A stretch of DNA of 64,000 nucleotides, from NCBI GenBank assembly GCA_044239865.1, contig JBIIAO010000005.1:41537-105536 (forward strand), given 5' to 3'. A program made the position numbers and the translations under genes. This document shows positions 43,359 through 56,842 of the stretch, in pieces. Under the pieces are notes generated by a model. It made no database searches, had not been told where the DNA came from, and worked only from the letters and a program-made list of their open reading frames with translations. Source of the DNA: Flavobacteriales bacterium (lineage in GTDB: Bacteria; Bacteroidota; Bacteroidia; Flavobacteriales_D; Sanyastnellaceae). The first letter of the stretch is position 1; the number at the start of each line of letters is the position of its first letter.

Positions 43359-44282
43359 TTATTTGATGAAGTTTTGACGATTGATGGTTCCGTTTTCGGA
43401 AATCACTTCTACCGTGTAAGCTCCTTTTGATAGATTCGAAGTTTGAATGCGAGTCATGTGATCTAAGATTGTTCCGTTCGCGAATACAACACGACCCGTG
43501 TTGTCATAGATACGAATTGAACGAATAATGTTTGGAGAAACGACGTTCAAAATATCTCCTGTTACTGGATTAGGATAAATTGAAATTGAACGTTCAACAT
43601 TTTCAGTAACGCTTACATTGCAATCGCATGTGTGTGCACCTAGGAAAGTGAATGTGTTAGCTGGCAAGGTGTCGTACTGAGCAAAAACATCGAACGAAGA
43701 TGGATTCATTGTAATTCCAGAAGTTACGGTAGACTTTCTGATTTGAGTGTGGTCTGTAGTTGCGTAGAGCGTTGCTCCTGTTTCGTCAGTTCCATATGCA
43801 CTCCATCCTCCAAAGCCAGTTCCTTCTCCAATTCTGCCGTAAAGGTCAATCAACGTTTGACCGTTGTTTGAAACAATTGCAATAGCGTCGTTTCCGTTGA
43901 AATACATTGGCCAAACACCGTTGTCATATGTTGGGTTAATAAATACATCTGCAGCTGCAGCTAAATCATCCCATACCGGTGCCTCGAGGCCCGTGCCTGC
44001 CTGATCTTGCTTGTCAAGAACAACTACAATAACATCGTTTGCTGCAATTGAATAACCGTCTAGCATAGCAATGCTGCCATATGACGTACTTCCGTTTGAA
44101 AAACGAACCAAGCCTATTCCGTTAAGATTAACAGTATTTGCGGTAGGGTTATAAATTTCAACCGCTTTGTTGTTGCTCCAACCTTCAATAACTTCAGAGA
44201 TGAAGATTTGATTGCATTGCGCTTGAGCCGTAAACAAGGCTAAAAAAGAAAAAGAGAGAAGTAAAAGTTTTTTCATTACCAT
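43359..44282 (-). CDS. Secreted LTD protein with T9SS type A sorting domain
   Basis: Signal peptide (MVMKKLLLLSFSFLALFTAQAQ), an LTD (QIFISEVIEGWSNNKAVEIYNPTANTVNLNG), and a C-terminal SIYPNPVTGDILNVV...FIK. The track TTG start at 44297 lies inside the -7 box, so I used the first ATG, at 44282. Confidence 0.8.
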   Translation of the reverse strand: MVMKKLLLLSFSFLALFTAQAQCNQIFISEVIEGWSNNKAVEIYNPTANTVNLNGIGLVRFSNGSTSYGSIAMLDGYSIAANDVIVVVLDKQDQAGTGLEAPVWDDLAAAADVFINPTYDNGVWPMYFNGNDAIAIVSNNGQTLIDLYGRIGEGTGFGGWSAYGTDETGATLYATTDHTQIRKSTVTSGITMNPSSFDVFAQYDTLPANTFTFLGAHTCDCNVSVTENVERSISIYPNPVTGDILNVVSPNIIRSIRIYDNTGRVVFANGTILDHMTRIQTSNLSKGAYTVEVISENGTINRQNFIK

Positions 44283-44294
44283 TTTATTTTGAGG

Positions 44295-44302
44295 CAAATA
44301 TA
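44295..44302 (-). promoter_or_regulatory. Candidate -7 promoter box (TATATTTG) for the small LTD gene
   Basis: The minus strand reads TATATTTG, 12 nt upstream of the ATG at 44282. Confidence 0.4.
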
Positions 44303-44511
44303 TTCTACAATTGGTTATCCTAGTCCGTCCAATGTGAAATGAATGTTAAAAGTGTCATGCACCTTTTTATGGAGTTTCTTGGTCTTTATTTTACGAAAGC
44401 TATTTACGAACGTTATCACCTGAACAATTTTCCTTTTCTGCAAGCGGAAAAGGGCATTGTTTGAGCGGTTATTTAGTAAATTGCACCTTAATAGTACTGA
44501 AAAATAAAACG

Positions 44512-47500
44512 ATGCGTTTCTTTATTCGCCTTTTTGCAATTGCAACAATCTTTTTATTGGCCTCTTCCGCCAATGCCAATCACGTCTTAGGTGGCAATCT
44601 CACTTGGGATTGCCTTGGGGGTAATCAGTATCAGATTACAATGAGAATCTACAAGGATTGTTTCGGCGCGAGCCCTGCTTTGTCTGCTGAGAACTTATTT
44701 GTTTTTCCAACAGGATGTACTCTGAATCCACAAAATATTACGCTGAATCTGATTAGTACGACTGAGATTTCGAATTTGTGCGCGAGTGAATTGCCAAGTA
44801 GCTCATGCGTAGGTGGCTTGTCTCCCGGCACGCAACTATTGACTTATCAAGCTACGGTAACACTCACCCCGGGATGCACGTGGGAAGTCATTTGGAATGA
44901 GGGAGATTGGAATTACTTCAACAACATTAATTACAGCACACTTCCAGACGCCTACTTAGATGCGCTAATCAACACAAATTACTGCGCAGATTCTCCAGTG
45001 ATTACCTCTATTCAAGTGCCATACGTCTGCAGAAACAATGGTACATTTGTTCATACGCCAACCGTAACTTTACCAGCTGGTGTTACCGCTTCATATACGC
45101 TTTCAACGCCACAAACAACAGGAGCTTCATTAGATGTGGGAATCAATGTTCCGGGATACGTTAATACCTTGGGAGCAACAGTAAACGCAACTACCGGTGC
45201 TGTTTCAATAAATACAAATGGAATTGCGGTTGGAAACTATATCGTTACTGTTCAAATTACCCTAACACAGGGAGGCAATGCAGTAGGCACGTTGTATGAG
45301 AACATGGTTTTTGTAATTCGCGATTGTGCAATTACGCCTACAACCTTTGCCAATCCAGAAATTCAGAGCATTAATATCCCCGCGAATCTTGCTGGTCCGG
45401 CAACCATAAATGCCTGCTCGGGTGATAGTGTATGCTTTACAGTTTCGGCTTCGAACACAAACCTCTATCGGGCAATAACAATTACATCGACTTGGAGCGC
45501 AGGTTTAAACGCCGGCACTCCCGTTTTCGCTCAAAGCACGGTAAATTACAATCCGGCTTCTGCCACATTCTGTTTTACAGCTCAACCCTCAATGGTTGGA
45601 GTAGCACAAACAATAAATTTTAATGCAATAGATAATGCCTGTACCGCTCCGCAATCAGATGCTCAAGTGGTTACAGTTAACGTTTTTCCGAGTGTAACTC
45701 TGAATCCAACTACTGCCACAATTTGCAATAACGCTGCGGTAACTGTCACTGCTTCGGGCGGTACAACATACACATGGTCTGTTTTAAGCGGAGACGCAAC
45801 TCCTGGATTCGATGGCAACGCAGCAGTTCAGGTTTTAGAAAGTATTTCAGGAAATACCGTAATTATGGTTTCCATGCCGGGTGTGCCTGTGCAGTGCAAT
45901 GCTACAGATACATTAACCGTTACTGTTCCTGATTTTACCCTTCAACCTTTGACAACCCAGAGTATGTGTGTGGGCGGAACGGTTACCCCGCTAACCTTCA
46001 CATTGGTTGGCGTTACTGGAACACCTACTTACCAGTGGTATAGCAATGCAACAAACTCAAATACTGGAGGAACGGCAATAGCAGGAGCAACAGCTATTAC
46101 TTATACTCCTTCGAGTGCCACAGCTGGAACAACCTATTACTATTGTTTAGTGACTCTAACCTCGGCTAGCTGCCCGGACATTACAACCAATACTGCAGAA
46201 GTTATTGTTGTTGCAGATCCAACTATTACTACTCAACCTCTAGCTACTCAGAATATTTGTATTGGAGGAACTGGTACATTGAGTGTTATCTATTCAAACG
46301 GATTAGGAAATGCAACTTACCAATGGTATTCAAATACAACGAATAGCAATACTGGGGGTTCGATCATTGCAGGCGCAACGAGCTCTACCTATACCACCCC
46401 TGTTTTAAACACAGCGGGCACAAGAAATTACTATTGCATAGTTACTTTGAGTGGCTCGGGATGTGGCACTGCAATATCTGCAGTTGGTCAAGTCATTGTT
46501 GGAGTGGACCCCACAATTTCAACCCAACCTTTAACGACTCAATCTATTTGCGTAAGCGGAACACCTGCAGCCATTTCAGTGGCTTATATAAACGGATCTG
46601 GAACGCCAGCTTATCAATGGTATTCGAACACCACAACGAGCACTACAACAGGAACAGCAATTCCGGGAGCGACTTCGGCGACTTATACGTTCTCTCAAAT
46701 GAACACGCCCGGTACTTTCTACTATTACTGTGTAATAACGTTAAGCGGATCCGGATGTAATGTCATTACTTCAGCTACTTCACAAGTGATAGTTGTTGCC
46801 GATGCCACAATTGCAACGCAACCACAAGCCTCTCAAACCGTTTGTTTGAATGGTATTCCGAATGCACTAACGGTTACAGTTAATAATGGATTAGGAACCA
46901 TCTCCTACCAATGGTATTGCACCACAGCGAACAATAATTTCTCTGGATCAGCTTTAGCTGGTGCAACCTCACCGACATTTATTCCTCCGACTAACGTTGT
47001 GGGAACTCGTTATTACTACTGCAGGGTAAACGTGGCAAGTTTGACTTGCGGAGTTATTTTCGTTGTTACTTCAGGAACAGGAGCCATAATCGTTGTGCCA
47101 CTTCCGACAGTAAACACACAGCCAACCCCAACTCAAAGCATTTGTATTGGAGGAACTCCGAATGCCCTTACAATGGGTTACACCGGAGGAACGGGTACTG
47201 CGAGTTATCAGTGGTATAGCAATGCGACAAACAGCAATACGGGCGGCACTGCTATAGCAGGTGCAACCACCAATTCGTACACTCCACCAGGAGCAACAAT
47301 TGGAACTTCTTACTATTATGGTGTTGTTACTTTAACAGGTTTAGGATGCGGAAGTGTTGCGAGCAATGTGGCTACTGTCAATGTTATTGCCGACCCATTA
47401 ATAACCACGCAGCCAACTGCATTACAAACTCTTTGCGTAGGTGGAATTCCTTCCTCCCTCACAACGGCATATTCAGGTGGAACGGGAACAGCTTCTTATC

Positions 47501-50500
47501 AGTGGTTTAGCAATACGACCAATTCTACAACAGGAGGAACATTGATTGCCGGGGCAACAACTGCAACATATACGCCTGCAGCTATTAACACTTCAGGAAA
47601 TTATTATTACTACGGAGCTGTTACACTTTCAGGTTCAGGTTGCGGAACCATTACCTCATCTACTTCAAATATTGTTGTCGTTGACGATCCTTCTTTTTCT
47701 GTTCAACCGCTTTCGACTCAAACCGTTTGTTTAAGTGGAACAACAACAGCCTTGTCCGTGACTTCAATTGGAGGAACTGGCACAATGTCTTACCAATGGT
47801 TTTCAAACGCTACCAATGCCACGACTGGAGGAACTGCAATTGCTGGAGCAACGGCTACAACATACACTCCGCCAAGCGCAGCACTCGGAACAATTTATTA
47901 TTATTGCGAAGTGTCGGCTACCGGAAGCGGTTGCGGAACAGCTGCCTCTGCTACAGCTGCAGTAGTCGTTGTATCACCTCCAACCGTAAGCACGCAGCCT
48001 ACTGTTACCCAAACCATCTGCGACGGTGGAACAGCAACAGCCCTAAGCGTTGCATACACCGGTGGAACCGGAACGCCTTCATACCAATGGTATTCGAATG
48101 CTACAAATAGCACAATTGGAGGAACAAGCATTGCGGGAGCAACAGCTTCAACCTACACCCCAACCGGAGTTGCAGCAGGGACATCTTATTACTATTGCAT
48201 CATCACGTTATCAGGATCTGCATGCGGAACAGCCACTTCCAACACAGCCACTGTTATTGCTGTAGCAGACCCAACCATCACCACCCAACCAACTGCTACG
48301 CAAACTATTTGTGCAGGTGGAACACCAAGTGCATTGACCATCGCATACTCCAACGGAACGGGCACTGCTAGTTATCAGTGGTATAGCAATACGACTTCAG
48401 CAACAACAGGTGGAACTCTAATAGCTGGGGCAACTGCAGCGAGTTATTCTCCTCCTGTTTTGAATACAGCGGGTAGTTTTTATTATTACGGCATTGCCAC
48501 TTTAAGTGGAAGTGGTTGCGGCGCTGCGACATCTGCAATTGCACTGGTAACAGTAATTGCAGACCCAATTGTATCAACTCAACCAATAATTACTCAAACA
48601 CTTTGCGCAGGTGGAATTCCAACACCACTGACCGTAGCTTCTACCGGTGGAACCGGAACGCCATCATACCAATGGTATTCGAATGCTGCAAATAGCACCA
48701 CAGGCGGAACATTAATTGCAGGAGCTACCGCAGTTTCTTATTCTCCGGTAACCACTGCTGTTGGAACAATTTATTACTATGGAATTATTACGTTAAGCGG
48801 AAGTGGTTGCGTTTCACCGGCTTCTTCGACTGGAGCAGTAATCGTAGTATCACCTCCAACCGTAAGCACTCAGCCTACTGTTACTCAAACCATCTGCGAC
48901 GGTGGAACAGCAGCAGCCCTCAGTGTTGCATACACCGGTGGAACCGGAACGCCTTCATACCAATGGTATTCGAATGCTACAAATAGCACAACTGGAGGAA
49001 CAAGCATTGCAGGAGCAACAGCTTCAACCTACACCCCAACCGGACTTGCAGCAGGAACATCTTATTACTATTGCATCATCACGTTATCAGGATCTGCATG
49101 TGGAACAGCCACTTCCAATACAGCCACTGTTATTGCTGTAGCAGACCCAACCATCACCACCCAACCAACTGCTACGCAAACTATTTGTGCAGGTGGAACA
49201 CCAAGTGCATTGACCCTAGCTTATTCAAACGGAACAGGTACACCGAGTTACCAGTGGTATAGCAATACGACTTCAGCAACAACAGGAGGAACTCTAATAG
49301 CAGGGGCAACTGCAGCGAGTTATTCTCCTCCTGTTTTGAATACAGCGGGTAGTTTTTATTATTACGGCATTGCCACTTTAAGTGGAAGTGGTTGCGGCGC
49401 TGCGACATCTGCTTCTGCAGAAGTTATTGTAGTGGCTGATCCAACCGTCACAACGCAGCCTTTGTCAACTCAGACGGTTTGTTCAGGGGGTACATTAGCT
49501 CTTTTATCCCTTGTGGCTTCGGGGGGAACAGGCACTACCACCTACCAATGGTTCTCGAATACTGCAAACAGTAATACAGGTGGAACACTTATCGCAGGAG
49601 AGACAAACGCTTCTTACACGCCGATAGCCACCACAGTTGGGACTACTTATTATTATGGTGTTGCTTCTCTAAGTGGCTCAGGTTGCGGAACAGCTGCCTC
49701 TGCTACAGCTGCAGTAATCGTAGTATCACCTCCAACCGTAAGCACTCAGCCTACTGTTACTCAAACCATCTGCGACGGTGGAACAGCAGCAGCCCTCAGT
49801 GTTGCATACACCGGTGGAACCGGAACGCCTTCATACCAATGGTATTCGAATGCTACAAATAGCACAACTGGAGGAACAAGCATTGCAGGAGCAACAGCTT
49901 CAACCTACACCCCAACCGGACTTGCAGCAGGAACATCTTATTACTATTGCATCATCACGTTATCAGGATCTGCATGTGGAACAGCCACTTCCAATACAGC
50001 CACTGTTATTGCTGTAGCAGACCCAACCATCACCACCCAACCAACTGCTACGCAAACTATTTGTGCAGGTGGAACACCAAGTGCATTGACCCTAGCTTAT
50101 TCAAACGGAACAGGTACACCGAGTTACCAGTGGTATAGCAATACGACTTCAGCAACAACAGGAGGAACTCTAATAGCAGGGGCAACTGCAGCGAGTTATT
50201 CTCCTCCTGTTTTGAATACAGCGGGTAGTTTTTATTATTACGGCATTGCCACTTTAAGTGGAAGTGGTTGCGGCGCTGCGACATCTGCTTCTGCAGAAGT
50301 TATTGTAGTTGCTGACCCAACAATTTCAGTTCAACCTTTGGCAACACAGACCAATTGTCAGAATGGAATTTCAACACCGCTTACTGTTACTGTAACCGGA
50401 GGTGTTGGAACAACAACTTACCAATGGTACACCAACATTGTCAACTCTACTGTAGGCGGTGTAGCTTCTGGAAACGCAGCGACACTTACCCCATTGACAG

Positions 50501-53500
50501 CTGTGGTCGGAACGGCATATGTTTATTGCATAATCAACACTTCAGGTGCAGGCTGTTCAGCGGCTACATCAGCAACTGCCGAAGTTATTGTAGCGCCAAT
50601 TCCTTCCATAACAACTCAACCACAAGCAACACAAACAGTTTGTCAAAACGGTACCACTTCGACTTTATCCTTTGCTTATTCGAACGGATCTGGGGCTACA
50701 ACATACCAATGGTATTCGAACCCAACCAACAGTGCAACGGGAGGAACTGCCGTTGCTGGTGAGACCAATGCAACCTTCACCCCAAGCGCCACTGCTATTG
50801 GAACGACTTATTATTACTGCGTATCCACGCTTAGTTTAGGTGGAAGTGGTTGCGGAACAGTAACCACACAAACAGCAGCGGTTATAGTAGTTGGTCCTCC
50901 AACTATATCAACCCAACCAACCGCCACGCAAACCATTTGTGTGGGCGGAACACCAAGTGCTTTATCGATCGCATACACCGGTGGAACAGGCACCGCCTCG
51001 TATCAATGGTACAGCAACACATCGAACGCTACAACAGGCGGTGCGGCAATTGTAGGTGCTACAACGGCTTCATTTACACCTCCGACATTAAACACTTCAG
51101 CAAGTTATTTCTACTATGGAACTGTTACGTTGAATGGTTCCGGTTGCGGATCCGCTACGTCAGCTTCTTCTGAGGTGGTTGTGGTTGTTGATCCAACTAT
51201 TTCAGTTCAACCGCTAACCACTCAAACCGTTTGTCAGAATGGCATTCCAACGCAGATAACTGTAACAGTTACAGGTGGAACAGGAACTACAACTTATCAA
51301 TGGTACACGACGATCTTAAACAATAACGTGGGCGGAGTAGCTTCAGGAAATGCAGCTACACTTACGCCGATTACAGCCGTAGTTGGAACGGGATATGTTT
51401 ATTGTGTTGTGAATACAAGTGGTGCAGGATGCACGGCAGTTGCTTCAACGACTTCTGCTGTTATCGTTGTTCCTCTTCCAACTATATCTTCTCAGCCCAT
51501 AGCGTCGCAAACCATTTGTCAAAATGGAGTGGCAACGCCATTAACATTTACCTACACCAATGGAACCGGAACTCCAACTTATCAATGGTACGTTAACGCT
51601 ACCGCAAGTACAACTGGAGGATCGATTTTAGCTGGGGAAACAAACGTTTCTTTTGCTCCTCCAACAAGTGCTCTCGGATCGCTCTATTATTATTGCGTAG
51701 CTACTATAAGCGGAAATGGATGCGGAACAGTTACGACTCAATCATCAGAGATAAATGTTGTTGGACTTCCAACAATTACAGCTCAGCCTTTAGCCACGCA
51801 GACAATCTGCTCGGGAGGATCTCCAAGTTCTTTAACATTGACATTCTCAGGAGGTACGGGTGCTGCTACTTACCAATGGTATAGCAACAGCACCAATGCC
51901 ACAACTGGTGGGGCGCTAATTCCTGGCGGAACTGCCGCTCAGTACAATATTCCGAACTTGAATACTTCAGGAAGTTATTACTATTATGGAATAATAACAT
52001 TGGGCGGGGTAGGATGTGGTTCAATAACAACAAGTGCATCAGAGGTTATTGTTAACCCCGATCCTACTGTTGGAACTCAACCTTTGACAACACAGAGCTT
52101 GTGCGCAACAGGAACACCGACTAATTTGCAAGTAAGCTTTAACAATGGCGCAGGTGTCGCTTCTTACCAGTGGTATTCCAGCACAACAAATTCAACTGCA
52201 AGTGGAATTCTAATTCCTGCCGCAACAAATGCGGTTTACACACCAAGTTCAACAACTCCAGGGACACAATATTACTATTGTACTATTTCATTATCGGGCT
52301 CTGGTTGCGCAGATGCGACAAGCAGTGTGGGTGAGGTGATTGTGTTTGCACAACCTACTTTTTCAGTTCAACCGAATCCGAATGAAACGGTTTGTTTGGG
52401 AGGAACTCCAACAACATTCTCACCAACGGTTGCGGGTGGAACAGGCGCTGCCAACTACCAATGGTATTCCAATTCTACAAATACAAACACGGGTGGAACC
52501 GCAGTTGCAGGAGAAACCAATCTTACGTACACACCTCCGGCAACGACAGTTGGTTCAACGTATTATTATTTGACAGCAACCTTCGCAGGCACAAGTTGCG
52601 GAACTGCATCTTCAAGCACTTCACAAATTATTGTTGTAGCAGACCCAACCGTTTCAACCCAACCACTTGCAACAGATTCGATGTGCGTTGGAGGAATACC
52701 AAATACGCTGAACGTTGCCGCGACCGGAGGTACGGGTACACCGACATATCAATGGTATAGCAACACTACAAATTCAAATGTTGGTGGAACAGTCATAGGG
52801 GCAGCAGTTGCTAGCACCTACAACCCAACTGCTTCTTCTACCGCAGGAACTCAATTTTTCTATGCGCAAATCACGCTTTCAGGTTCTGGTTGCGATATAT
52901 TAAGTTCTTCCGTAAGTGAAATCGTAAACGTGGCAGACCCAATCATTTCAACTCAGCCGGCCGCAGCGCAGGATGTGTGTTTGAACTCCCCGTCAACTGC
53001 AATAAGTGCAGCTGTAAGTGGTGGTTTAGGAACAGTGAGTTATGCGTGGTATAGCAATTCAACGCAAACTCTTCCAGGAACTATTCTTCCCGGAGCGAAC
53101 ACCAATACTGTTACCCCTGCCAATACTCCTGCTGGAATTTCTTACTTCTACATGGTAGCAACACTTTCAGGAAATGGATGTAACGCCGCCACTTCGAATT
53201 TTTCTCAAGTAACCGTTCACGCGTTACCTACTGTGACAGCTACTCCGCTTGATAATTCAATTTGTTTCGGAACAACAACGGATATAGTTGCGAGTGGAGC
53301 GACTTCTTATGTATGGACTGCAGCTCCTACCATTACTTCACCAGCGAATGTTGCTACTGTATCAGTCGCGCCGATTGGAAGTGTTACATATACTGTTCAA
53401 GGTACAGATGCATTTGGATGTGTGAATACGGCAACAGCAACCGTTGTTGCAGCAACACAACTAAACGTTCAAGAGAATATCACCACAAATATTTGTTATC

Positions 53501-55257
53501 AAACATGCACTGGAGCAATAGCTTTAACACCGACTGGCAGTGGTTCTAGTTATACAGTGGCTTGGAATACACCAGGTGTAACCGGATTAAACCCTCAGAA
53601 TTTATGTCCAGGAAACTACACCTACACGGTAACCGATAACCTCACCTGTTCTTTCCAAAACACAGTGAACATTGCAGCATTGCCAAACAATCCGTTAGAC
53701 AATGTGATCATTACTCAGCCGACATGTTTTGGATACAACAACGGTAGTATTGATTTTCAAGACGCGAGCGCAGTATCATTCCAACTGGTAAACGCAGCAA
53801 CGAATGCAACCATAGCGACACAACCAGGCGGGTTGTTCGGGACAATCGGCGCGGGTAATTACAACATCATTTACAACGATGCTTTGGGCTGTGTTTATGA
53901 CAGTTTAAATTTCTCTATCGTTGCGCAATCTGCTCAAATAACATTGGCCTTAAATGCGCAAGCCCCTGTTCTATGCTTCAACCAAGTGGTTCCATTAACA
54001 GCGATTGCAGGAGGTGGAGACGGCGGTGCAATTACAGTTACTTGGGGAAGTTGCAATACCGTAACGAATTGCATATTGGGTTCTGGTAATCCATACAATT
54101 ACACGCTTACTTCAGATGTTACGTTGTATGCTCAGGCAACAGATGCAACAGGATGTGCGAGTGTAATTCAGTCCATTGCTTTGAATTTGGCGAATCCAGT
54201 TCAAGTTAATCTTCAAAACGGAACTTCATCGGTTCTCATTTGTGAAGGTGATTGCGTAAACATGAGCGCAGTTGCGACCGGCGGTAACAATCCAATTAAT
54301 ATCGAATGGTATGAAGTTCCAACAGCCATAGGAGGAACTACTATAGGTCCTAACGGAACAACCAATACAATATGCCCAACAGTGTCAACGTCTGTATTTG
54401 TTTTCGCAAACGACGGCTGTGGTGTTCCTGATTACGACACGTTGAATATTGTTGTTCAGTCATTCCCGACGGTTAGCTTCTCAGTGAATACACAAGATGG
54501 CTGTTTACCTTTAACGGTCTCTTTCACCAACAACACATCGCCAACTTTTAATGGAAACTGTTTGTGGTCAATGGACGATGGAACTACGTTTGCGAATTGT
54601 GGCAATCAAGTGTATACCTACACAGACGAAGGCGCCTATACTCCAACGTTATATGTTATTTCTCCTGAAGGTTGTTCAACAACATATTCGCTGCCTGCTC
54701 CAATTGTAGTGCACGGTTATCCGGTTGCAGATTTTTCGTGGGCACCGCAACCCGTTGATGTAACAAATCCTGTTGTCCAATTTACAGACGCTTCAGTTGA
54801 TGCGGTGAATTACCTCTGGGAATTTGCATGGCTTGGGGCAAGTGATCTACAGAATCCGGTATTCACATTCCCTGATGAAGATTTAGCTGAATATCCTGTT
54901 TGCTTAACTGTCGAGAACAGCTTTGGCTGTCAGGACACCATGTGCAGAACGATTCGATTGAACAGTGTCCTGCAGGTTTGGGTGCCGAATGCATTTACTC
55001 CAGAGCAAGACGGATTGAATGAAGTATTCGTTCCAGTAATAAAAGGAGCGAAACCTGAAACCTATCACTTCTCAATATTTGATCGTTGGGGAACTTTGGT
55101 TTTCGAGTCGTTTGAAATTGGAGAGCCTTGGATTGGTGACGTTCGGAATGGAAATGCATTTGCTGCCAACGGAGCGTATATCTGGCGACTAGAGGTGCAA
55201 CCTCTGGAAGACAGGAGTCTGAAGTTATACACCGGATTCGTAACGGTAATAAGATAA
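44512..55257 (+). CDS. Giant (3581 aa) cell-surface repeat protein with T9SS type B (gliding-motility-associated) C-terminal sorting domain
   Basis: Signal peptide (MRFFIRLFAIATIFLLASSANA) and a unique N-terminal ~470 aa, followed by about 25 Ig-like modules and further beta-rich domains. The C-terminus is VWVPNAFTPEQDGLNEVFVP...FDRWGTLVFES...GAYIWRLEV...VTVIR. I placed the start at the ATG at 44512. Confidence 0.9.
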   Translation: MRFFIRLFAIATIFLLASSANANHVLGGNLTWDCLGGNQYQITMRIYKDCFGASPALSAENLFVFPTGCTLNPQNITLNLISTTEISNLCASELPSSSCVGGLSPGTQLLTYQATVTLTPGCTWEVIWNEGDWNYFNNINYSTLPDAYLDALINTNYCADSPVITSIQVPYVCRNNGTFVHTPTVTLPAGVTASYTLSTPQTTGASLDVGINVPGYVNTLGATVNATTGAVSINTNGIAVGNYIVTVQITLTQGGNAVGTLYENMVFVIRDCAITPTTFANPEIQSINIPANLAGPATINACSGDSVCFTVSASNTNLYRAITITSTWSAGLNAGTPVFAQSTVNYNPASATFCFTAQPSMVGVAQTINFNAIDNACTAPQSDAQVVTVNVFPSVTLNPTTATICNNAAVTVTASGGTTYTWSVLSGDATPGFDGNAAVQVLESISGNTVIMVSMPGVPVQCNATDTLTVTVPDFTLQPLTTQSMCVGGTVTPLTFTLVGVTGTPTYQWYSNATNSNTGGTAIAGATAITYTPSSATAGTTYYYCLVTLTSASCPDITTNTAEVIVVADPTITTQPLATQNICIGGTGTLSVIYSNGLGNATYQWYSNTTNSNTGGSIIAGATSSTYTTPVLNTAGTRNYYCIVTLSGSGCGTAISAVGQVIVGVDPTISTQPLTTQSICVSGTPAAISVAYINGSGTPAYQWYSNTTTSTTTGTAIPGATSATYTFSQMNTPGTFYYYCVITLSGSGCNVITSATSQVIVVADATIATQPQASQTVCLNGIPNALTVTVNNGLGTISYQWYCTTANNNFSGSALAGATSPTFIPPTNVVGTRYYYCRVNVASLTCGVIFVVTSGTGAIIVVPLPTVNTQPTPTQSICIGGTPNALTMGYTGGTGTASYQWYSNATNSNTGGTAIAGATTNSYTPPGATIGTSYYYGVVTLTGLGCGSVASNVATVNVIADPLITTQPTALQTLCVGGIPSSLTTAYSGGTGTASYQWFSNTTNSTTGGTLIAGATTATYTPAAINTSGNYYYYGAVTLSGSGCGTITSSTSNIVVVDDPSFSVQPLSTQTVCLSGTTTALSVTSIGGTGTMSYQWFSNATNATTGGTAIAGATATTYTPPSAALGTIYYYCEVSATGSGCGTAASATAAVVVVSPPTVSTQPTVTQTICDGGTATALSVAYTGGTGTPSYQWYSNATNSTIGGTSIAGATASTYTPTGVAAGTSYYYCIITLSGSACGTATSNTATVIAVADPTITTQPTATQTICAGGTPSALTIAYSNGTGTASYQWYSNTTSATTGGTLIAGATAASYSPPVLNTAGSFYYYGIATLSGSGCGAATSAIALVTVIADPIVSTQPIITQTLCAGGIPTPLTVASTGGTGTPSYQWYSNAANSTTGGTLIAGATAVSYSPVTTAVGTIYYYGIITLSGSGCVSPASSTGAVIVVSPPTVSTQPTVTQTICDGGTAAALSVAYTGGTGTPSYQWYSNATNSTTGGTSIAGATASTYTPTGLAAGTSYYYCIITLSGSACGTATSNTATVIAVADPTITTQPTATQTICAGGTPSALTLAYSNGTGTPSYQWYSNTTSATTGGTLIAGATAASYSPPVLNTAGSFYYYGIATLSGSGCGAATSASAEVIVVADPTVTTQPLSTQTVCSGGTLALLSLVASGGTGTTTYQWFSNTANSNTGGTLIAGETNASYTPIATTVGTTYYYGVASLSGSGCGTAASATAAVIVVSPPTVSTQPTVTQTICDGGTAAALSVAYTGGTGTPSYQWYSNATNSTTGGTSIAGATASTYTPTGLAAGTSYYYCIITLSGSACGTATSNTATVIAVADPTITTQPTATQTICAGGTPSALTLAYSNGTGTPSYQWYSNTTSATTGGTLIAGATAASYSPPVLNTAGSFYYYGIATLSGSGCGAATSASAEVIVVADPTISVQPLATQTNCQNGISTPLTVTVTGGVGTTTYQWYTNIVNSTVGGVASGNAATLTPLTAVVGTAYVYCIINTSGAGCSAATSATAEVIVAPIPSITTQPQATQTVCQNGTTSTLSFAYSNGSGATTYQWYSNPTNSATGGTAVAGETNATFTPSATAIGTTYYYCVSTLSLGGSGCGTVTTQTAAVIVVGPPTISTQPTATQTICVGGTPSALSIAYTGGTGTASYQWYSNTSNATTGGAAIVGATTASFTPPTLNTSASYFYYGTVTLNGSGCGSATSASSEVVVVVDPTISVQPLTTQTVCQNGIPTQITVTVTGGTGTTTYQWYTTILNNNVGGVASGNAATLTPITAVVGTGYVYCVVNTSGAGCTAVASTTSAVIVVPLPTISSQPIASQTICQNGVATPLTFTYTNGTGTPTYQWYVNATASTTGGSILAGETNVSFAPPTSALGSLYYYCVATISGNGCGTVTTQSSEINVVGLPTITAQPLATQTICSGGSPSSLTLTFSGGTGAATYQWYSNSTNATTGGALIPGGTAAQYNIPNLNTSGSYYYYGIITLGGVGCGSITTSASEVIVNPDPTVGTQPLTTQSLCATGTPTNLQVSFNNGAGVASYQWYSSTTNSTASGILIPAATNAVYTPSSTTPGTQYYYCTISLSGSGCADATSSVGEVIVFAQPTFSVQPNPNETVCLGGTPTTFSPTVAGGTGAANYQWYSNSTNTNTGGTAVAGETNLTYTPPATTVGSTYYYLTATFAGTSCGTASSSTSQIIVVADPTVSTQPLATDSMCVGGIPNTLNVAATGGTGTPTYQWYSNTTNSNVGGTVIGAAVASTYNPTASSTAGTQFFYAQITLSGSGCDILSSSVSEIVNVADPIISTQPAAAQDVCLNSPSTAISAAVSGGLGTVSYAWYSNSTQTLPGTILPGANTNTVTPANTPAGISYFYMVATLSGNGCNAATSNFSQVTVHALPTVTATPLDNSICFGTTTDIVASGATSYVWTAAPTITSPANVATVSVAPIGSVTYTVQGTDAFGCVNTATATVVAATQLNVQENITTNICYQTCTGAIALTPTGSGSSYTVAWNTPGVTGLNPQNLCPGNYTYTVTDNLTCSFQNTVNIAALPNNPLDNVIITQPTCFGYNNGSIDFQDASAVSFQLVNAATNATIATQPGGLFGTIGAGNYNIIYNDALGCVYDSLNFSIVAQSAQITLALNAQAPVLCFNQVVPLTAIAGGGDGGAITVTWGSCNTVTNCILGSGNPYNYTLTSDVTLYAQATDATGCASVIQSIALNLANPVQVNLQNGTSSVLICEGDCVNMSAVATGGNNPINIEWYEVPTAIGGTTIGPNGTTNTICPTVSTSVFVFANDGCGVPDYDTLNIVVQSFPTVSFSVNTQDGCLPLTVSFTNNTSPTFNGNCLWSMDDGTTFANCGNQVYTYTDEGAYTPTLYVISPEGCSTTYSLPAPIVVHGYPVADFSWAPQPVDVTNPVVQFTDASVDAVNYLWEFAWLGASDLQNPVFTFPDEDLAEYPVCLTVENSFGCQDTMCRTIRLNSVLQVWVPNAFTPEQDGLNEVFVPVIKGAKPETYHFSIFDRWGTLVFESFEIGEPWIGDVRNGNAFAANGAYIWRLEVQPLEDRSLKLYTGFVTVIR
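47965..48556 (+). repeat. Copy 1 (diverged) of the intragenic 876-bp-period duplication
   Basis: Aligns at an offset of exactly 876 nt to 48841-49432, with scattered substitutions. Confidence 0.85.
48841..49432 (+). repeat. Copy 2 of the perfect 592-bp intragenic direct repeat
   Basis: Read base by base, it is identical to 49717-50308. Confidence 0.9.
49717..50308 (+). repeat. Copy 3 of the perfect 592-bp intragenic direct repeat
   Basis: Identical to 48841-49432. The off-frame track ORFs 48902-49141 and 49778-50017 are identical as a consequence. Confidence 0.9.
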
Positions 55258-55314
55258 ATTTAAAACCCTCGGGCAACTTTCTGAAACCAATTGTTATCAA
55301 TCAAACGATGAAGT

Positions 55315-55839
55315 ATGAGCGATAGCGAATTGGTTTCAGAATGTCTCAAAGGAAAGTCGTCCGCACAAAGGACACTCTTTCAATTGCACTCTGGAAAAAT
55401 GTTCGCGGTGAGTCTACGTTACATGGGTAGCACCATGGAAGCCGAAGAGGTGTTGCAAGAAAGCTTCATTAAAGTTTTTGAAAAGCTTAATCAATGGAAG
55501 GGCGACGGTCCTCTAGGGGGTTGGATTAGAACCATTGTTGTGAATACCGCGCTAACCCGCATTAAGAACAACAAGAAGTTTCGACTCGACAAAAACATTG
55601 ATGACGCAGTATCACTTTCCGACAACGGAGAAGATCAATTGGAAGCCTTGCAGGCAGCTGATTTGATGAAGTTAATTGCTCAAATGCCCGATGGGTACAA
55701 GACAGTATTTAACTTGTTCGTTGTGGAAGGATATGGACACAAAGAAATTGCCGACCTAATGGGGATTTCTGAAAGCACTTCAAAAACACAATTTTTAAAA
55801 GGAAAAAACTGGTTAGTCAAAAGAATAAATGAGCAATAA
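55315..55839 (+). CDS. ECF-type sigma-70 family RNA polymerase sigma factor
   Basis: 174 aa. Region 2 (AEEVLQESFIKVF...WIRTIVVNTAL) and a region 4 HTH (GYGHKEIADLMGISESTSKTQFLKGK). Confidence 0.9.
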   Translation: MSDSELVSECLKGKSSAQRTLFQLHSGKMFAVSLRYMGSTMEAEEVLQESFIKVFEKLNQWKGDGPLGGWIRTIVVNTALTRIKNNKKFRLDKNIDDAVSLSDNGEDQLEALQAADLMKLIAQMPDGYKTVFNLFVVEGYGHKEIADLMGISESTSKTQFLKGKNWLVKRINEQ

Positions 55840-56842
55840 GTGGAACAATATCATTCGTGAAAAGCTAGAATCCCATGAGGTTTCAGCAGATCACTTGTGG
55901 AATAACATTTCACAAAATATTCCTCAACCCTCTTCTTCTTTTTGGAAACCTTGGATGACCACTGCTGCCATTGGAACGGCAGCCATTGCAACTTCCGCAA
56001 TTATTTATTTCAATTCACCGAATCAAACTCAGCCGGTTGTTCAATCTTCTGAGCAAAAAACGGTAGAGGTAAAAGTTGATACAACTTCAAACACGGTGAA
56101 CAGTGTTGAGACTTCTGAAAGTACCGCAATTCCTCAAATTATCACAGGTGGAATTCCAGATGATATTTATTCAGGGTATGTGTGGCAAATGCCTGAGGCA
56201 GAGGAATTAGCTTCGATTGAAACTGGAAATCAACGCGACACTCAAATTACAGCTGTAATTGAAGACTCGAATTCGAATCCTTCTAACAACAGATCTTCCC
56301 AGGTTATTGCAGAAAGAGAGCCCCTTACAAATTCATTTACTGCGGTTGTTTCCAATGCCGAAAGTTTAAGATATTTCTTCTTCGGAGCAGCTGAAAAGGC
56401 CGACTCTTATGCATGGAATTTCGGAGATGGATTCGACGGACAAGGACAGTCAATAGCGCACGAATTCACCGAAGAAGGAACCTACACAGTGAAGTATATT
56501 GTTTCAAGAGGAGAAGAAATGATGGTTGAAGAAAAGACCATTGAGGTCTATCGTCCTGCAAAACTTTCTCCAGTTACCGCATTTGCTCCTGGATTCGACG
56601 GAAAGAACGATGTATTCGATGTGTTGTACAACGCCCGCAACGTAAGCGAAACGGTTAATTTCAAAATCACGGATGTTAACGGCAGATTGGTTTATCAAAC
56701 GGATGGACAATCGGTTTGGGATGGAAAAAACTTGAGTGGCGAGTTATGTCAGCCAGCGTATTACAATTGGATCATTGAATTCAAAGACCGTCAAGGCAAC
56801 TTGAAATCTCAGTCGGGGTCCATTCGCATATTCGGCGAATAA
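55829..56842 (+). CDS. Membrane-anchored PKD-domain protein with T9SS type B sorting domain, in the anti-sigma position
   Basis: Its start overlaps the sigma gene by 11 nt. The N-terminal 40 aa are followed by a TM helix (WMTTAAIGTAAIATSAIIYF) and a low-complexity linker. A PKD block follows (YAWNFGDGFDGQGQSIAHEFTEEGTYTVKY). The C-terminus is FAPGFDGKNDVFDV...ITDVNGRLVYQ...WDGKN...YYNWIIEF...SIRIF. Confidence 0.7.
   Translation: MSNKWNNIIREKLESHEVSADHLWNNISQNIPQPSSSFWKPWMTTAAIGTAAIATSAIIYFNSPNQTQPVVQSSEQKTVEVKVDTTSNTVNSVETSESTAIPQIITGGIPDDIYSGYVWQMPEAEELASIETGNQRDTQITAVIEDSNSNPSNNRSSQVIAEREPLTNSFTAVVSNAESLRYFFFGAAEKADSYAWNFGDGFDGQGQSIAHEFTEEGTYTVKYIVSRGEEMMVEEKTIEVYRPAKLSPVTAFAPGFDGKNDVFDVLYNARNVSETVNFKITDVNGRLVYQTDGQSVWDGKNLSGELCQPAYYNWIIEFKDRQGNLKSQSGSIRIFGE

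Follow-up and report, generated by a model that had tools for sequence, protein, structure and literature searches.

We have identified, in the 64,000-nt stretch of a Flavobacteriales genome analysed here (the window), an ECF sigma factor gene overlapping a gene for a single-pass membrane protein that ends in a T9SS type B sorting domain. On the reading we favour, with a probability of roughly 0.55, the two products would form a cognate sigma/anti-sigma pair within the Bacteroidota lineage to which the Dma/Das (ECF21) systems belong, the sorting domain would tie the anti-sigma factor to the state of the T9SS, and the sigma would direct transcription of its own operon and of the giant adhesin-like gene upstream. 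Our in silico results cover the arrangement of the domains, the homology of the N-terminus, a conserved pairing, a tether that stays long and the promoter motifs; that the partner binds the sigma, is proteolysed under control and is engaged by the T9SS, and which way the feedback runs, we infer from them.

The sigma factor gene and its overlapping partner

The coordinates of the two genes, of the domains of the partner and of the upstream elements are collected in Table 1. The 57-nt gap that the earlier note had placed between the giant gene and the sigma gene is right, the giant ORF ending at 55257, and a consensus scan of the gap returned no terminator-like hairpin, in agreement with the absence of a terminator claimed there. 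The 11-nt overlap of the sigma gene with the 337-aa ORF is likewise real and runs over 55829-55839. The sigma need not be co-transcribed with the giant gene, for a conserved ECF-type promoter of its own is predicted within the gap. Three related loci (L001-L003) have the genes in this same order (giant gene, sigma, partner, RadA). Sigma and partner genes overlap in 61 of 81 loci, an overlap of 11 nt being common within the variant clade, and the partner directly adjoins the ECF sigma gene with the same geometry across relatives, as in the Dma family.

Table 1. Positions in the window of the giant gene, the sigma/partner pair, the partner's domains and the predicted promoters.
Feature	Position	Strand	Basis
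Predicted ECF-type promoter of the giant gene, ATGCACCTTTTT-N-TTGGTCTT (-35 TGCACC, -10 GGTCTT)	44357..44386	+	PWM, conservation
Giant (~3,580 aa) Ig/PKD-repeat adhesin-like protein; signal peptide, C-terminal type B (CHU_C) T9SS sorting domain	44512..55257	+	ORF + Pfam
Predicted autoregulatory ECF-type promoter of the sigma/anti-sigma operon, GGGCAACTTT-N-GTTATCAA	55271..55300	+	motif, PWM, conservation
ECF sigma factor gene, 174 aa	55315..55839	+	Sigma70_r2, Sigma70_r4_2, TIGR02937
Partner (putative anti-sigma) ORF, 337 aa	55829..56842	+	
Residues 1-42, predicted cytoplasmic sigma-binding module (motif IIREKLESHEV-x6-W-xx-I)	55829..55954	+	HMM homology, conservation
Residues 43-61, single transmembrane helix (signal anchor, N-terminus inside)	55955..56011	+	hydrophobicity, conservation
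Residues 62-159, polar variable periplasmic tether, probably disordered	56012..56305	+	composition, conservation, pLDDT
Residues ~160-243, PKD domain	56306..56557	+	PKD_4 match
Residues 244-337 + stop codon, CHU_C/type B T9SS sorting domain	56558..56842	+	CHU_C match

The sigma factor carries only the sigma-2 and sigma-4 domains, and its length lies in the range expected of ECF (group IV) sigma-70 factors (~170-200 aa). Both Pfam matches exceed their gathering cut-offs (Sigma70_r2, 43.3 bits; Sigma70_r4_2, 48.1 bits), the NCBIfam sigma70-ECF model TIGR02937 reaches 73.1 against a cut-off of 42.9, and every best match to an NCBIfam equivalog or subfamily model falls under its own cut-off. Relatives at 36-57% identity were found in 80 Bacteroidota species (Bacteroidota titles on 79 of these 80 closest species-level relatives, L022 being titled Planctomycetota), each followed by a partner with the same N-terminal module. 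ECF21 sigmas are known from Bacteroidota only and are encoded beside Dma-type partners (PMC13088901); the relatives of the window sigma show this restriction and 36 of them are followed by partners of Dma architecture, and the sigma of the window is probably a member of the ECF21 (Das-like) group.

The overall layout that the earlier note had read from the partner, i.e. a cytoplasmic tail, one transmembrane helix, a polar linker, a PKD domain and a CHU_C/type B sorting domain, was recovered in full. Its remark that the N-terminus has no zinc-binding anti-sigma motif was also accurate: residues 1-42 contain no Cys and no HxxxCxxC motif, and the partner gave no match to a zinc-finger anti-sigma family of Pfam at E <= 1, so that it stands outside the class I/zinc-binding (ZAS) anti-sigma factors (HxxxCxxC; zf-HC2/RsrA-like). 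FecR/DUF4880-type domains were not found in the Pfam scan either. An anti-sigma role is very likely even though the zinc motif is absent, because related sigmas have partners of Dma architecture whose N-terminal modules are homologous to the one found here. An HMM made from barrel-type (Dma-architecture) N-termini only matched residues 3-54 of the window protein with E = 1.6e-8 and gave zero false positives among 6,655 ORFs; the homology covers the N-termini of 36 Dma-architecture proteins, and for barrel-type partners of Bacteroidales the search extended to Coprobacter and Tannerella. In the published system, the N-terminal region of Dma1 (B. thetaiotaomicron, WP_008766767.1) and of Reo (B. 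fragilis) is sufficient for sigma binding, and Dma1(1-40) pulls down Das1 (PMC10927553). Moreover, each of the 80 sigma relatives at species level is followed by a gene that abuts or overlaps it and whose product has this N-terminal motif and a transmembrane helix, and W24 is invariant in the alignment of all partner classes. Residues 4-14 and 20-29 form two short helices, at low confidence, in an AlphaFold2 model built from a shallow alignment (mean pLDDT 37). When the N-terminal 66 residues were searched by themselves, the matches were all fragments.

By this homology the partner is very probably a genuine anti-sigma factor. That it is instead a common PKD protein, secreted or anchored, which only happens to share an operon with the sigma seems very improbable to us. 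The missing zinc-binding/class I domain would suit such a protein, as would the public annotation, which mentions only a 'PKD repeat protein' or a 'gliding motility-associated C-terminal domain-containing protein'. Yet the first 62 residues are nearly invariant among close relatives and are the best-conserved stretch of the whole protein, their homologues accompany all 80 related sigmas and bind the sigma in Dma1 and Reo, and a cytoplasmic tail of 42 residues before the hydrophobic segment is abnormal for a signal peptide.

The outer end of the partner

Residues 43-61 are the sole hydrophobic segment of the partner (Kyte-Doolittle 1.48); the segment is kept in relatives, where Lys/Arg residues lie on its N-terminal side. 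The tether that follows is rich in S/T/E/Q/N, varies among close relatives and is modelled with pLDDT < 30. A single inner-membrane helix followed by a long disordered tether is also what defines the inner part of Dma proteins. In the sorting-domain (variant) class the distance from the helix to the sorting domain has a median of 143 aa (range 118-208), compared with 174 aa (107-415) from helix to barrel in the barrel class, and the tether is always retained.

The PKD_4 profile matches residues 191-239 with 38.6 bits (cut-off 27; profile positions 34-82 of 85), and a PKD domain occurs in only some of the variant-class relatives. The sorting domain is recognised by CHU_C on residues 251-333 (34.5 bits against a cut-off of 27), a C-terminal domain (PF13585 CHU_C/TIGR04131) of the kind that marks T9SS type B cargo, although on TIGR04131 the window protein scores 22.1 and thus stays below the cut-off of 35. 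Its sequence reads FAPGFDG where the consensus is FTPNGDG. The orthologous domains of relatives begin with the canonical PNxFTPNGDGxND and exceed both cut-offs, with 43-75 bits on CHU_C and 38-42 bits on TIGR04131. The full-length protein is retained in at least 153 clusters of close relatives, and so the architecture of the pair is not a chance product; among these relatives the PKD and C-terminal domains are conserved and the linker is variable.

The earlier note had assigned this domain and the C-terminus of the giant protein to one sorting class. Both are indeed CHU_C/type B domains, the C-terminal 499 aa of the giant protein scoring 51 bits on PKD_4, 46.7 bits on CHU_C and 28.3 on TIGR04131, also below the cut-off of 35; but the domain of the partner is no copy of the giant's. 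A recent duplication of the giant protein's C-terminus was considered as the source of the partner's PKD and sorting domains and rejected at 29% identity (E = 2e-4). The C-terminal domain of the partner matches that of the L004 anti-sigma protein with E = 1e-24.

With type B cargo such as SprB, which works with SprF (PMC9143113), the partner shares the CHU_C/TIGR04131 C-terminus, PKD/Ig repeats before it and an occurrence in Flavobacteriales that glide or bear a T9SS. Such cargo has a cleavable signal peptide and leaves the inner membrane, whereas the window protein has a conserved cytoplasmic module of 42 residues and a signal anchor and is always paired with a sigma. No cleavable Sec signal peptide is present, the hydrophobic segment beginning only at residue 43, and the alignment of relatives contains no conserved AxA site after that segment. 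A protein anchored in the inner membrane is not fully secretable, and the passage of a tethered chain through the SprA translocon, or its lodging there, is a difficulty for engagement by the T9SS.

The signal anchor would also suit a conventional single-pass anti-sigma factor whose PKD and CHU_C-like beta-sandwiches act as periplasmic sensors, with no part for the T9SS. We consider this unlikely, though with some points in its favour: T9SS sorting domains are Ig-like beta-sandwiches that could be reused as binding modules, the C-terminal domain of PorA acts as a periplasmic ligand (PMC12152298), and the TIGR04131 score of the window protein is sub-threshold. Against it, main-clade orthologues have canonical type B domains above both curated cut-offs, often with no other folded domain; the long tether (at least 118 aa) is kept as in the membrane-bridging Dma proteins; and every recognisable C-terminal alternative in the partner family is an outer-membrane-directed module.

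The closest known system is that of Dma (dual membrane-spanning anti-sigma). Dma proteins consist of an N-terminal module, a transmembrane helix, a disordered tether and an outer-membrane barrel, and growth-phase-dependent proteolytic fragments of Dma1 were reported (PMC10927553; PMC13088901). Like the window pair, Dma/ECF21 systems have an ECF sigma directly upstream, often overlapping, an N-terminal module of ~40 aa that binds no zinc, a transmembrane helix and a long polar tether, and are restricted to Bacteroidota. The difference lies at the outer end, where the eight-stranded OMP_b-brl_2 barrel of Dma is absent (the window protein matched neither a barrel family nor a local barrel HMM) and the window class has a CHU_C/TIGR04131 sorting domain with or without PKD. 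The window protein would therefore work like a Dma relative and lies outside the family as defined. Since the barrel is replaced by a sorting domain, contact with the outer membrane would depend on the T9SS or a PorP-like partner and not on BAM insertion. The targets differ as well, being vesiculation genes for Dma and, by prediction, the giant adhesin here. The sorting-domain type is a variant of the published Dma/ECF21 system, and its architecture therefore has a precedent. We did not find a published description of this variant, on which the Dma papers are silent.

Predicted promoters of the sigma operon and the giant gene

The window was scored with a PWM whose training set consisted solely of promoters of sigma genes from other species. 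The promoter of the sigma operon, which ends 14 nt before the sigma ATG, is the second-best match (14.2) and is kept in L001-L003; its -10 box is TATCA and not GTCT. The same motif and spacing lie 13-21 nt before the sigma start in all 23 sorting-domain-type loci, and the motif was enriched in 16 of 23 loci against a maximum of 5 in shuffles.

Over both strands of the window, the highest score belongs to a site upstream of the giant gene (20.8; shuffle maxima 10.7-14.6), with p = 5.6e-8 per site, 0.007 such sites expected per window, and 4 of 200,000 shuffles of the 214-nt region reaching its score. It stands ~125 nt upstream of the ATG at 44512, where MRFF... opens a signal peptide; the TTG at 44461 that had been listed as the start is probably not used. 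Both boxes are kept in nine relatives (L084-L092) with diverging spacer and flanks, and the -35 box has a C at an otherwise invariant A (TGCACC vs TGCAAC). By these motifs the giant adhesin gene is a probable member of the regulon of the sigma, and the conserved site lends real support to the guess, made in the earlier note, that the sigma controls its giant neighbour. A scan for sigma-70 consensus promoters gave no more sites than shuffled sequence, and a covarying hairpin in the leader of the giant gene was not supported, its core pairs being invariant and the hairpin absent in L091.

On the favoured reading, the N-terminal module of ~40 residues would hold the sigma at the inner membrane, by homology to Dma1 and Reo; the protein would cross that membrane once and span the periplasm with a tether of at least ~100 residues, so as to present its type B sorting domain, with PKD before it, where Dma has the outer-membrane beta-barrel. 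There the sorting domain may dock, with the T9SS translocon and/or with an outer-membrane protein of the PorP/SprF type, and whether the anti-sigma factor stays intact or is proteolysed may depend on the machinery for secretion and anchoring being free, occupied or defective. Freed sigma would transcribe, from the two promoters described above, its own operon and the giant adhesin gene. The outcome would be a feedback loop between export and synthesis of type B cargo. Because the outer end of the inhibitor is a sorting tag of the adhesin's own class, secretion and adhesin transcription may be wired together.

Perhaps this extends to a whole, so far undescribed "cargo-mimic" class of anti-sigma factors, widespread in Flavobacteriales, in which the grip of the T9SS or of a PorP/SprF-like receptor on the sorting domain, at the tip of a tether across the periplasm, triggers or prevents proteolysis, so that spare capacity for secretion or anchoring would directly set the transcription of giant type B adhesins by an ECF21-type sigma; we put this forward tentatively, as less likely than not. 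If true, it would amount to a secretion-to-transcription feedback within one polypeptide, with one end in the cytoplasm and the other at the outer-membrane translocon.

The docking step also admits another signal. The same anti-sigma factor could use the sorting domain as an outer-membrane anchor only, exported a single time and held by a PorP/SprF-like barrel that structurally replaces the beta-barrel of Dma; it would thereby bridge the two membranes and respond to outer-membrane damage, surface contact or tension rather than to T9SS activity. Type B C-terminal domain proteins do bind PorP-like outer-membrane proteins and remain bound to them uncleaved (PMC9143113), the variant is sister to barrel-type Dma-architecture proteins with a tether of like length, and the authors of the Dma work propose sensing of outer-membrane perturbation (PMC10927553). 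We nonetheless regard a pure anchor as improbable. A hydrophilic tether would have to stay across the outer membrane in the translocon or partner barrel, for which there is no precedent; no PorP/SprF-like gene was present among the 19 window ORFs scanned or in the neighbourhood of the pair at any other locus examined; and the predicted regulon member is itself type B cargo, a better fit to the secretion-linked feedback of the favoured reading.

Matching the synthesis of giant T9SS cargo to secretion capacity is known in Bacteroidota chiefly from PorXY-SigP-PorA of Porphyromonas gingivalis (PMC7712824, PMC12152298), where a sorting domain likewise has a second, regulatory role, in a pathway that links secretion to transcription and has an ECF sigma as its last member. 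As PorA with PorY demonstrated, a T9SS C-terminal domain can be a regulatory ligand in the periplasm, and tethering PorA to the inner membrane does not stop it from signalling (PMC12152298). PorA is free type A cargo; its C-terminal domain acts in trans, by binding the sensor kinase PorY, and no anti-sigma factor is known for SigP, whereas the window protein has a type B domain in cis on the predicted anti-sigma factor and implies no two-component system. FecA/FecR/FecI offers a further parallel (established; PMC9249621), with a single-pass regulator whose periplasmic end contacts an outer-membrane machine and which acts on an ECF sigma via regulated proteolysis; its N-terminal and periplasmic domains are unrelated to those of the window protein, and its outer-membrane partner is a TonB-dependent transducer and not the T9SS. 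The variant exchanges the beta-barrel of Dma for a domain with known partners (SprA/PorV, PorP/SprF-like) and has a specific predicted target next door, and it thus provides a concrete signal and a concrete read-out for a test.

Distribution of the sorting-domain type

Partners of the related sigmas in the 80 species divide into 22-23 with CHU_C, 36 with OMP_b-brl_2 after the N-terminal module, helix and tether, and 21 others. The pairing with a type B sorting domain is in this way conserved well past close relatives. Partner class tracks the sigma phylogeny in an NJ tree, where the window pair with L004, and also L006, are set apart from the main variant clade by deep branches of short length. 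The Dma/ECF21 lineage swaps its outer end between modules of different outer-membrane machines, namely BAM-type barrels and T9SS sorting domains, which suggests that the partner family monitors outer-membrane biogenesis or secretion pathways.

The synteny with a giant adhesin gene that the earlier note proposed to survey is found only in part: the pairing itself holds, and cargo adjacency is lineage-specific (5 of 24 loci). In L024, L072 and L078 the pair has cargo of the same adhesin family beside it; in L004 and L040 it has other CHU_C cargo. We rejected the idea that such a pair always has a cargo or T9SS neighbour. The pairs of the main variant clade sit among housekeeping genes (a thioredoxin-like protein, RpiB, FolB and GltX) with no cargo nearby, which counts against a general link to T9SS cargo. 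The variant is also present in the cultured Fluviicola chungangensis (WP_144331889.1 + WP_144331890.1), whose partner protein has no annotation beyond that of a gliding-motility C-terminal-domain protein.

An ECF sigma factor and its membrane-bound partner

The 174-aa protein encoded behind the giant adhesin-like gene is an ECF sigma factor, since Sigma70_r2 and Sigma70_r4_2 both exceed their Pfam cut-offs and TIGR02937 is matched at 73 bits (cut-off 43). Its partner starts with a 42-residue N-terminal tail in which cysteines are absent, followed by one hydrophobic helix (residues 43–61), a linker rich in S/T/E/Q/N, a PKD domain scoring 38.6 bits and, at the C-terminus, a CHU_C (type B sorting) domain at 34.5 bits against a cut-off of 27. 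With TIGR04131, the type B model of NCBIfam, the partner stays below cut-off (22 vs 35), as does the giant protein's own C-terminus (28 vs 35). Both the gene layout tabulated below and this order of domains agree with what the earlier note had read from the sequence. The partner is kept whole in upwards of 150 clusters of closely related sequences, with residues 1–62 almost invariant, a freely varying linker and conserved PKD and sorting domains, and the same local gene order is found in three longer contigs (L001–L003).

Features of the sigma/partner region, in window positions
Feature	Position	Strand	Basis or remark
Type A T9SS cargo, farther upstream	37461-40355	-	Por_Secre_tail
Type A T9SS cargo, divergent nearer neighbour of giant gene	43359-44297	-	Por_Secre_tail
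Giant gene, predicted ECF-type promoter	44357-44386	+	Top PWM match in window, ~125 nt 5′ of ATG
Giant ORF	44512-55257	+	ORF call
Sigma operon, predicted promoter	55271-55300	+	GGGCAACTTT...GTTATCAA, within 57-nt gap
Sigma ORF, 174 aa	55315-55839	+	57-nt gap after giant ORF
Partner ORF, 337 aa	55829-56842	+	Start overlaps final 11 nt of sigma ORF

The 50%-identity clusters nearest to the window sigma share 51% identity or less with it, and alignment of the nearest clusters led to 80 loci from different Bacteroidota species (sigma identity 36–57%). At virtually all loci a gene encoding a common N-terminal pattern, roughly [IF]xx[LI][FI]xxKLxxxEVx6Wxx[IV], and then a transmembrane helix at about residue 40–65 directly adjoins or overlaps the sigma gene (overlap in 61/81, the 11-nt overlap being common among the window's relatives); the pairing is thus kept in relatives.

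Three classes can be told apart by their C-termini. At 22–23 of the 80 loci, including Crocinitomicaceae, other Flavobacteriales and the cultured Fluviicola chungangensis, the partner ends in a CHU_C/type B sorting domain, with scores of 43–75 bits for CHU_C and 38–42 bits for TIGR04131, above cut-off, and a canonical PNxFTPNGDGxND start. At 36 loci, from Bacteroidales, Chitinophagales and Saprospiraceae, the partner ends in an outer-membrane beta-barrel (OMP_b-brl_2), and 21 loci, mostly Cytophagales, have short partners without a recognised domain. The short partners (e.g. L022, L036, L042, L055, L064, L065, L069, L079) are 200–280 aa long, with the same N-terminal module, helix and polar linker, after which comes just a charged, conserved tail (..DLQDAKxxLF..KK); they match neither Pfam nor NCBIfam domains, and one is labelled 'Anti-sigma factor' in UniRef. 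In L081, a MAG titled 'uncultured Bacteroides sp.', the partner from about 6504 has a putative PKD-like region and a weak CHU_C-like C-terminus (local HMM, E = 1e-5), so a sorting-domain-like variant may be present in Bacteroidales as well.

The search with an HMM trained solely on barrel-class N-termini covered window and loci in six frames (6,655 ORFs). It matched residues 3–54 of the window partner (E = 1.6e-8), every other partner and no other ORF; thus, at the level of sequence, the N-terminal module is homologous in the sorting-domain, barrel and short classes. That the partner is not an anti-sigma at all is therefore unlikely; its tail does lack cysteines, but this match, the nearly invariant residues 1–62 and the N-terminal pattern in partners of related sigmas argue against it, and the window genes are very probably an ECF sigma/anti-sigma pair. 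Two tandem copies of the N-terminal motif precede the helix in the partners of L021, L025, L017, L026, L062 and L063, which hints at two bound sigma molecules or an internal decoy.

A relative of the Dma anti-sigma factors

Dual membrane-spanning anti-sigma (Dma) genes adjoin ECF21 sigma genes and are confined to Bacteroidota; Das1 was pulled down with residues 1–40 of Dma1, a result reported before for B. fragilis Reo/EcfO as well, and Dma1 yields proteolytic fragments that depend on growth phase (PMC10927553, PMC13088901). The T9SS and sorting domains come up in neither paper. The window partner resembles a Dma in its sigma-adjacent gene, its helix, its tether and an N-terminal module homologous to that of Dma-architecture proteins, through which it would bind sigma. 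What it lacks is the barrel at the C-terminus by which the family is defined; it is thus a relative that probably works like a Dma, but not a Dma as defined. The link is drawn from architecture together with N-terminal homology to the Dma-architecture proteins of the 36 barrel-class loci. The idea of the earlier note was largely right, yet a Dma/ECF21-type system of which this architecture is a variant had already been published in 2024; what is new is the type B sorting domain instead of the barrel. A full-text literature search found no description of such a variant, and public annotation of these partners includes "PKD repeat protein".

Partner class tracks the sigma tree, in which all ~20 species of one clade have sorting-domain partners; thus, the variant is old and vertically inherited. 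The window, with L004 (its closest relative), and also L006 lie outside this main clade on short deep branches whose order the tree does not settle, so that the variant may have arisen once or more than once. A recent copying of the partner's sorting domain from the giant protein was ruled out, because it is closest to other anti-sigma sorting domains (L004, E = 1e-24) and shares 29% identity with that of the giant protein (E = 2e-4).

Predicted promoters of the operon and of the giant gene

A two-box motif, GCAAC-N15-18-GTCT, is strongly enriched 5′ of the sigma genes, being found at 16 of 23 variant loci (shuffled maximum 5), and on alignment, window included, TGCAAC(C/T)TTT ... (A/G)TC(T/A) is present in 23/23 with fixed spacing, its 3′ end lying 13–21 nt ahead of the sigma start. 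In the other partner classes the prevailing form is a related dyad, GCAAC...CATC. Since the window copy lies inside the 57-nt gap, the operon would have its own promoter, independent of read-through from the giant gene, and is presumably autoregulated from it. A hairpin scan of the gap found no terminator-like structure able to stop read-through, in line with the earlier reading.

A position weight matrix (PWM) trained on 21 sigma-promoter sites of other species was run over the 64-kb window on either strand. The site 5′ of the giant gene ranks first with 20.8 bits (maxima of five shuffles 10.7–14.6), and the sigma's own promoter second. Matches as strong are expected 0.007 times per window, when the 214-nt upstream region is shuffled 200,000 times only 4 shuffles attain the score, and scores of at least 20 in the other loci (~970 kb) are almost confined to sigma promoters. 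Moreover, nine metagenomic relatives of the giant gene (70–93% protein identity) retain both boxes and their spacing while spacer and upstream flank diverge. A caveat is the −35 box, TGCACC, with C where A is otherwise invariant. Altogether there is good in silico evidence that the window sigma drives the giant adhesin gene, as the earlier note had suspected. Other strong matches away from a sigma promoter, in L016 (8595, minus strand, 21.3 bits) and L045 (6945, plus strand, 23.6 bits), mark candidate regulon members in those species.

The giant gene's leader carries an invariant block, TAGTAAATTGCAC, at 44474–44486, ~25 nt 5′ of the ATG in otherwise variable sequence; it is constant among relatives down to 70% protein identity, apart from a single T/A difference in L091/L092, and candidate readings are a −7-like box of the housekeeping type, an operator, and a ribosome or RNA-binding site. 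A terminator-like hairpin (CCTTTTC...GAAAAGG) at 44431–44454 lies between the predicted promoter and the ATG; its comparative support is weak, with core pairs invariant rather than covarying and the hairpin missing in L091. Inside the gene (48454–50225), three identical hairpin-like matches lie exactly 876 nt apart (48454, 49330, 50206), and near-identical 292-aa blocks are repeated in the translation. This points to recent tandem expansion, so that assemblies may collapse the copy number or leave it uncertain.

Possible mechanism and neighbouring cargo genes

Most likely, the N-terminal module would sequester sigma at the inner membrane, the tether would span the periplasm and the sorting domain would dock with the T9SS translocon, a PorP/SprF-like partner or both; binding of type B sorting domains to PorP/SprF-like proteins is known (PMC9143113). 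Regulated proteolysis of the anti-sigma would depend on the state of this contact. Sigma set free in this way would switch on its own operon and the giant type B adhesin gene, so that the making of cargo and the capacity to export it would form a feedback loop; the T9SS involvement, the protease and the direction of feedback are what we infer. A precedent for a regulatory role is PorA/PorY/SigP of P. gingivalis, where a sorting domain serves as a regulatory signal in the periplasm and does so also when anchored to the inner membrane (PMC12152298). The partner shares the type B sorting domain with real T9SS cargo but lacks the cleavable signal peptide.

Helix and sorting domain are separated by a median of 143 aa (118–208, never shorter), helix and barrel by 174 aa (107–415), with similarly polar composition. 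Such a retained tether is expected if the C-terminal domain has to reach the outer membrane, whether for the docking proposed here or, as a rival reading has it, as a pure outer-membrane anchor in place of the barrel. Another rival makes the partner a periplasmic sensor with no T9SS role; against it, in several sorting-domain partners the sorting domain is the sole folded domain past the linker. With this variant, it becomes directly testable which signal this line of anti-sigmas senses and whether control of giant adhesins is linked to the T9SS.

The proposed synteny of type B cargo with such pairs held in part. A second CHU_C gene was present in the flanks examined at only 5/24 variant loci, and in the main variant clade the pair is surrounded by housekeeping genes, hence the adhesin link is shown for the window's lineage rather than for the class as a whole. 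In L004, CHU_C ORFs lie on both sides of the pair, in L040 beside it, and in L024 a type B cargo sharing the giant protein's N-terminal domain is directly downstream.

The N-terminal ~330 residues of the giant protein (44512–45561) match no Pfam family, and a related domain recurs in cargo genes adjoining ECF/anti-sigma pairs in L024 (5052–6509), L072 and L078. In the latter two, the gene order is sigma, barrel-type partner, a 509-aa protein and an adhesin-like gene. These genes are tightly packed (L072 5015–11548, L078 5977–12497), the 509-aa protein has a weak type A sorting-domain match, its gene contains an ECF-promoter-like site (19.3 bits in L072, 17.9 in L078), and the large gene's N-terminus resembles that of the window giant. 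Of the two type A cargo genes upstream of the giant gene, one encodes LTD and Por_Secre_tail domains and the other PLD-like, fn3 and Por_Secre_tail domains, and a TonB-dependent receptor gene lies between them; the region is thus a cluster of secreted and surface proteins.
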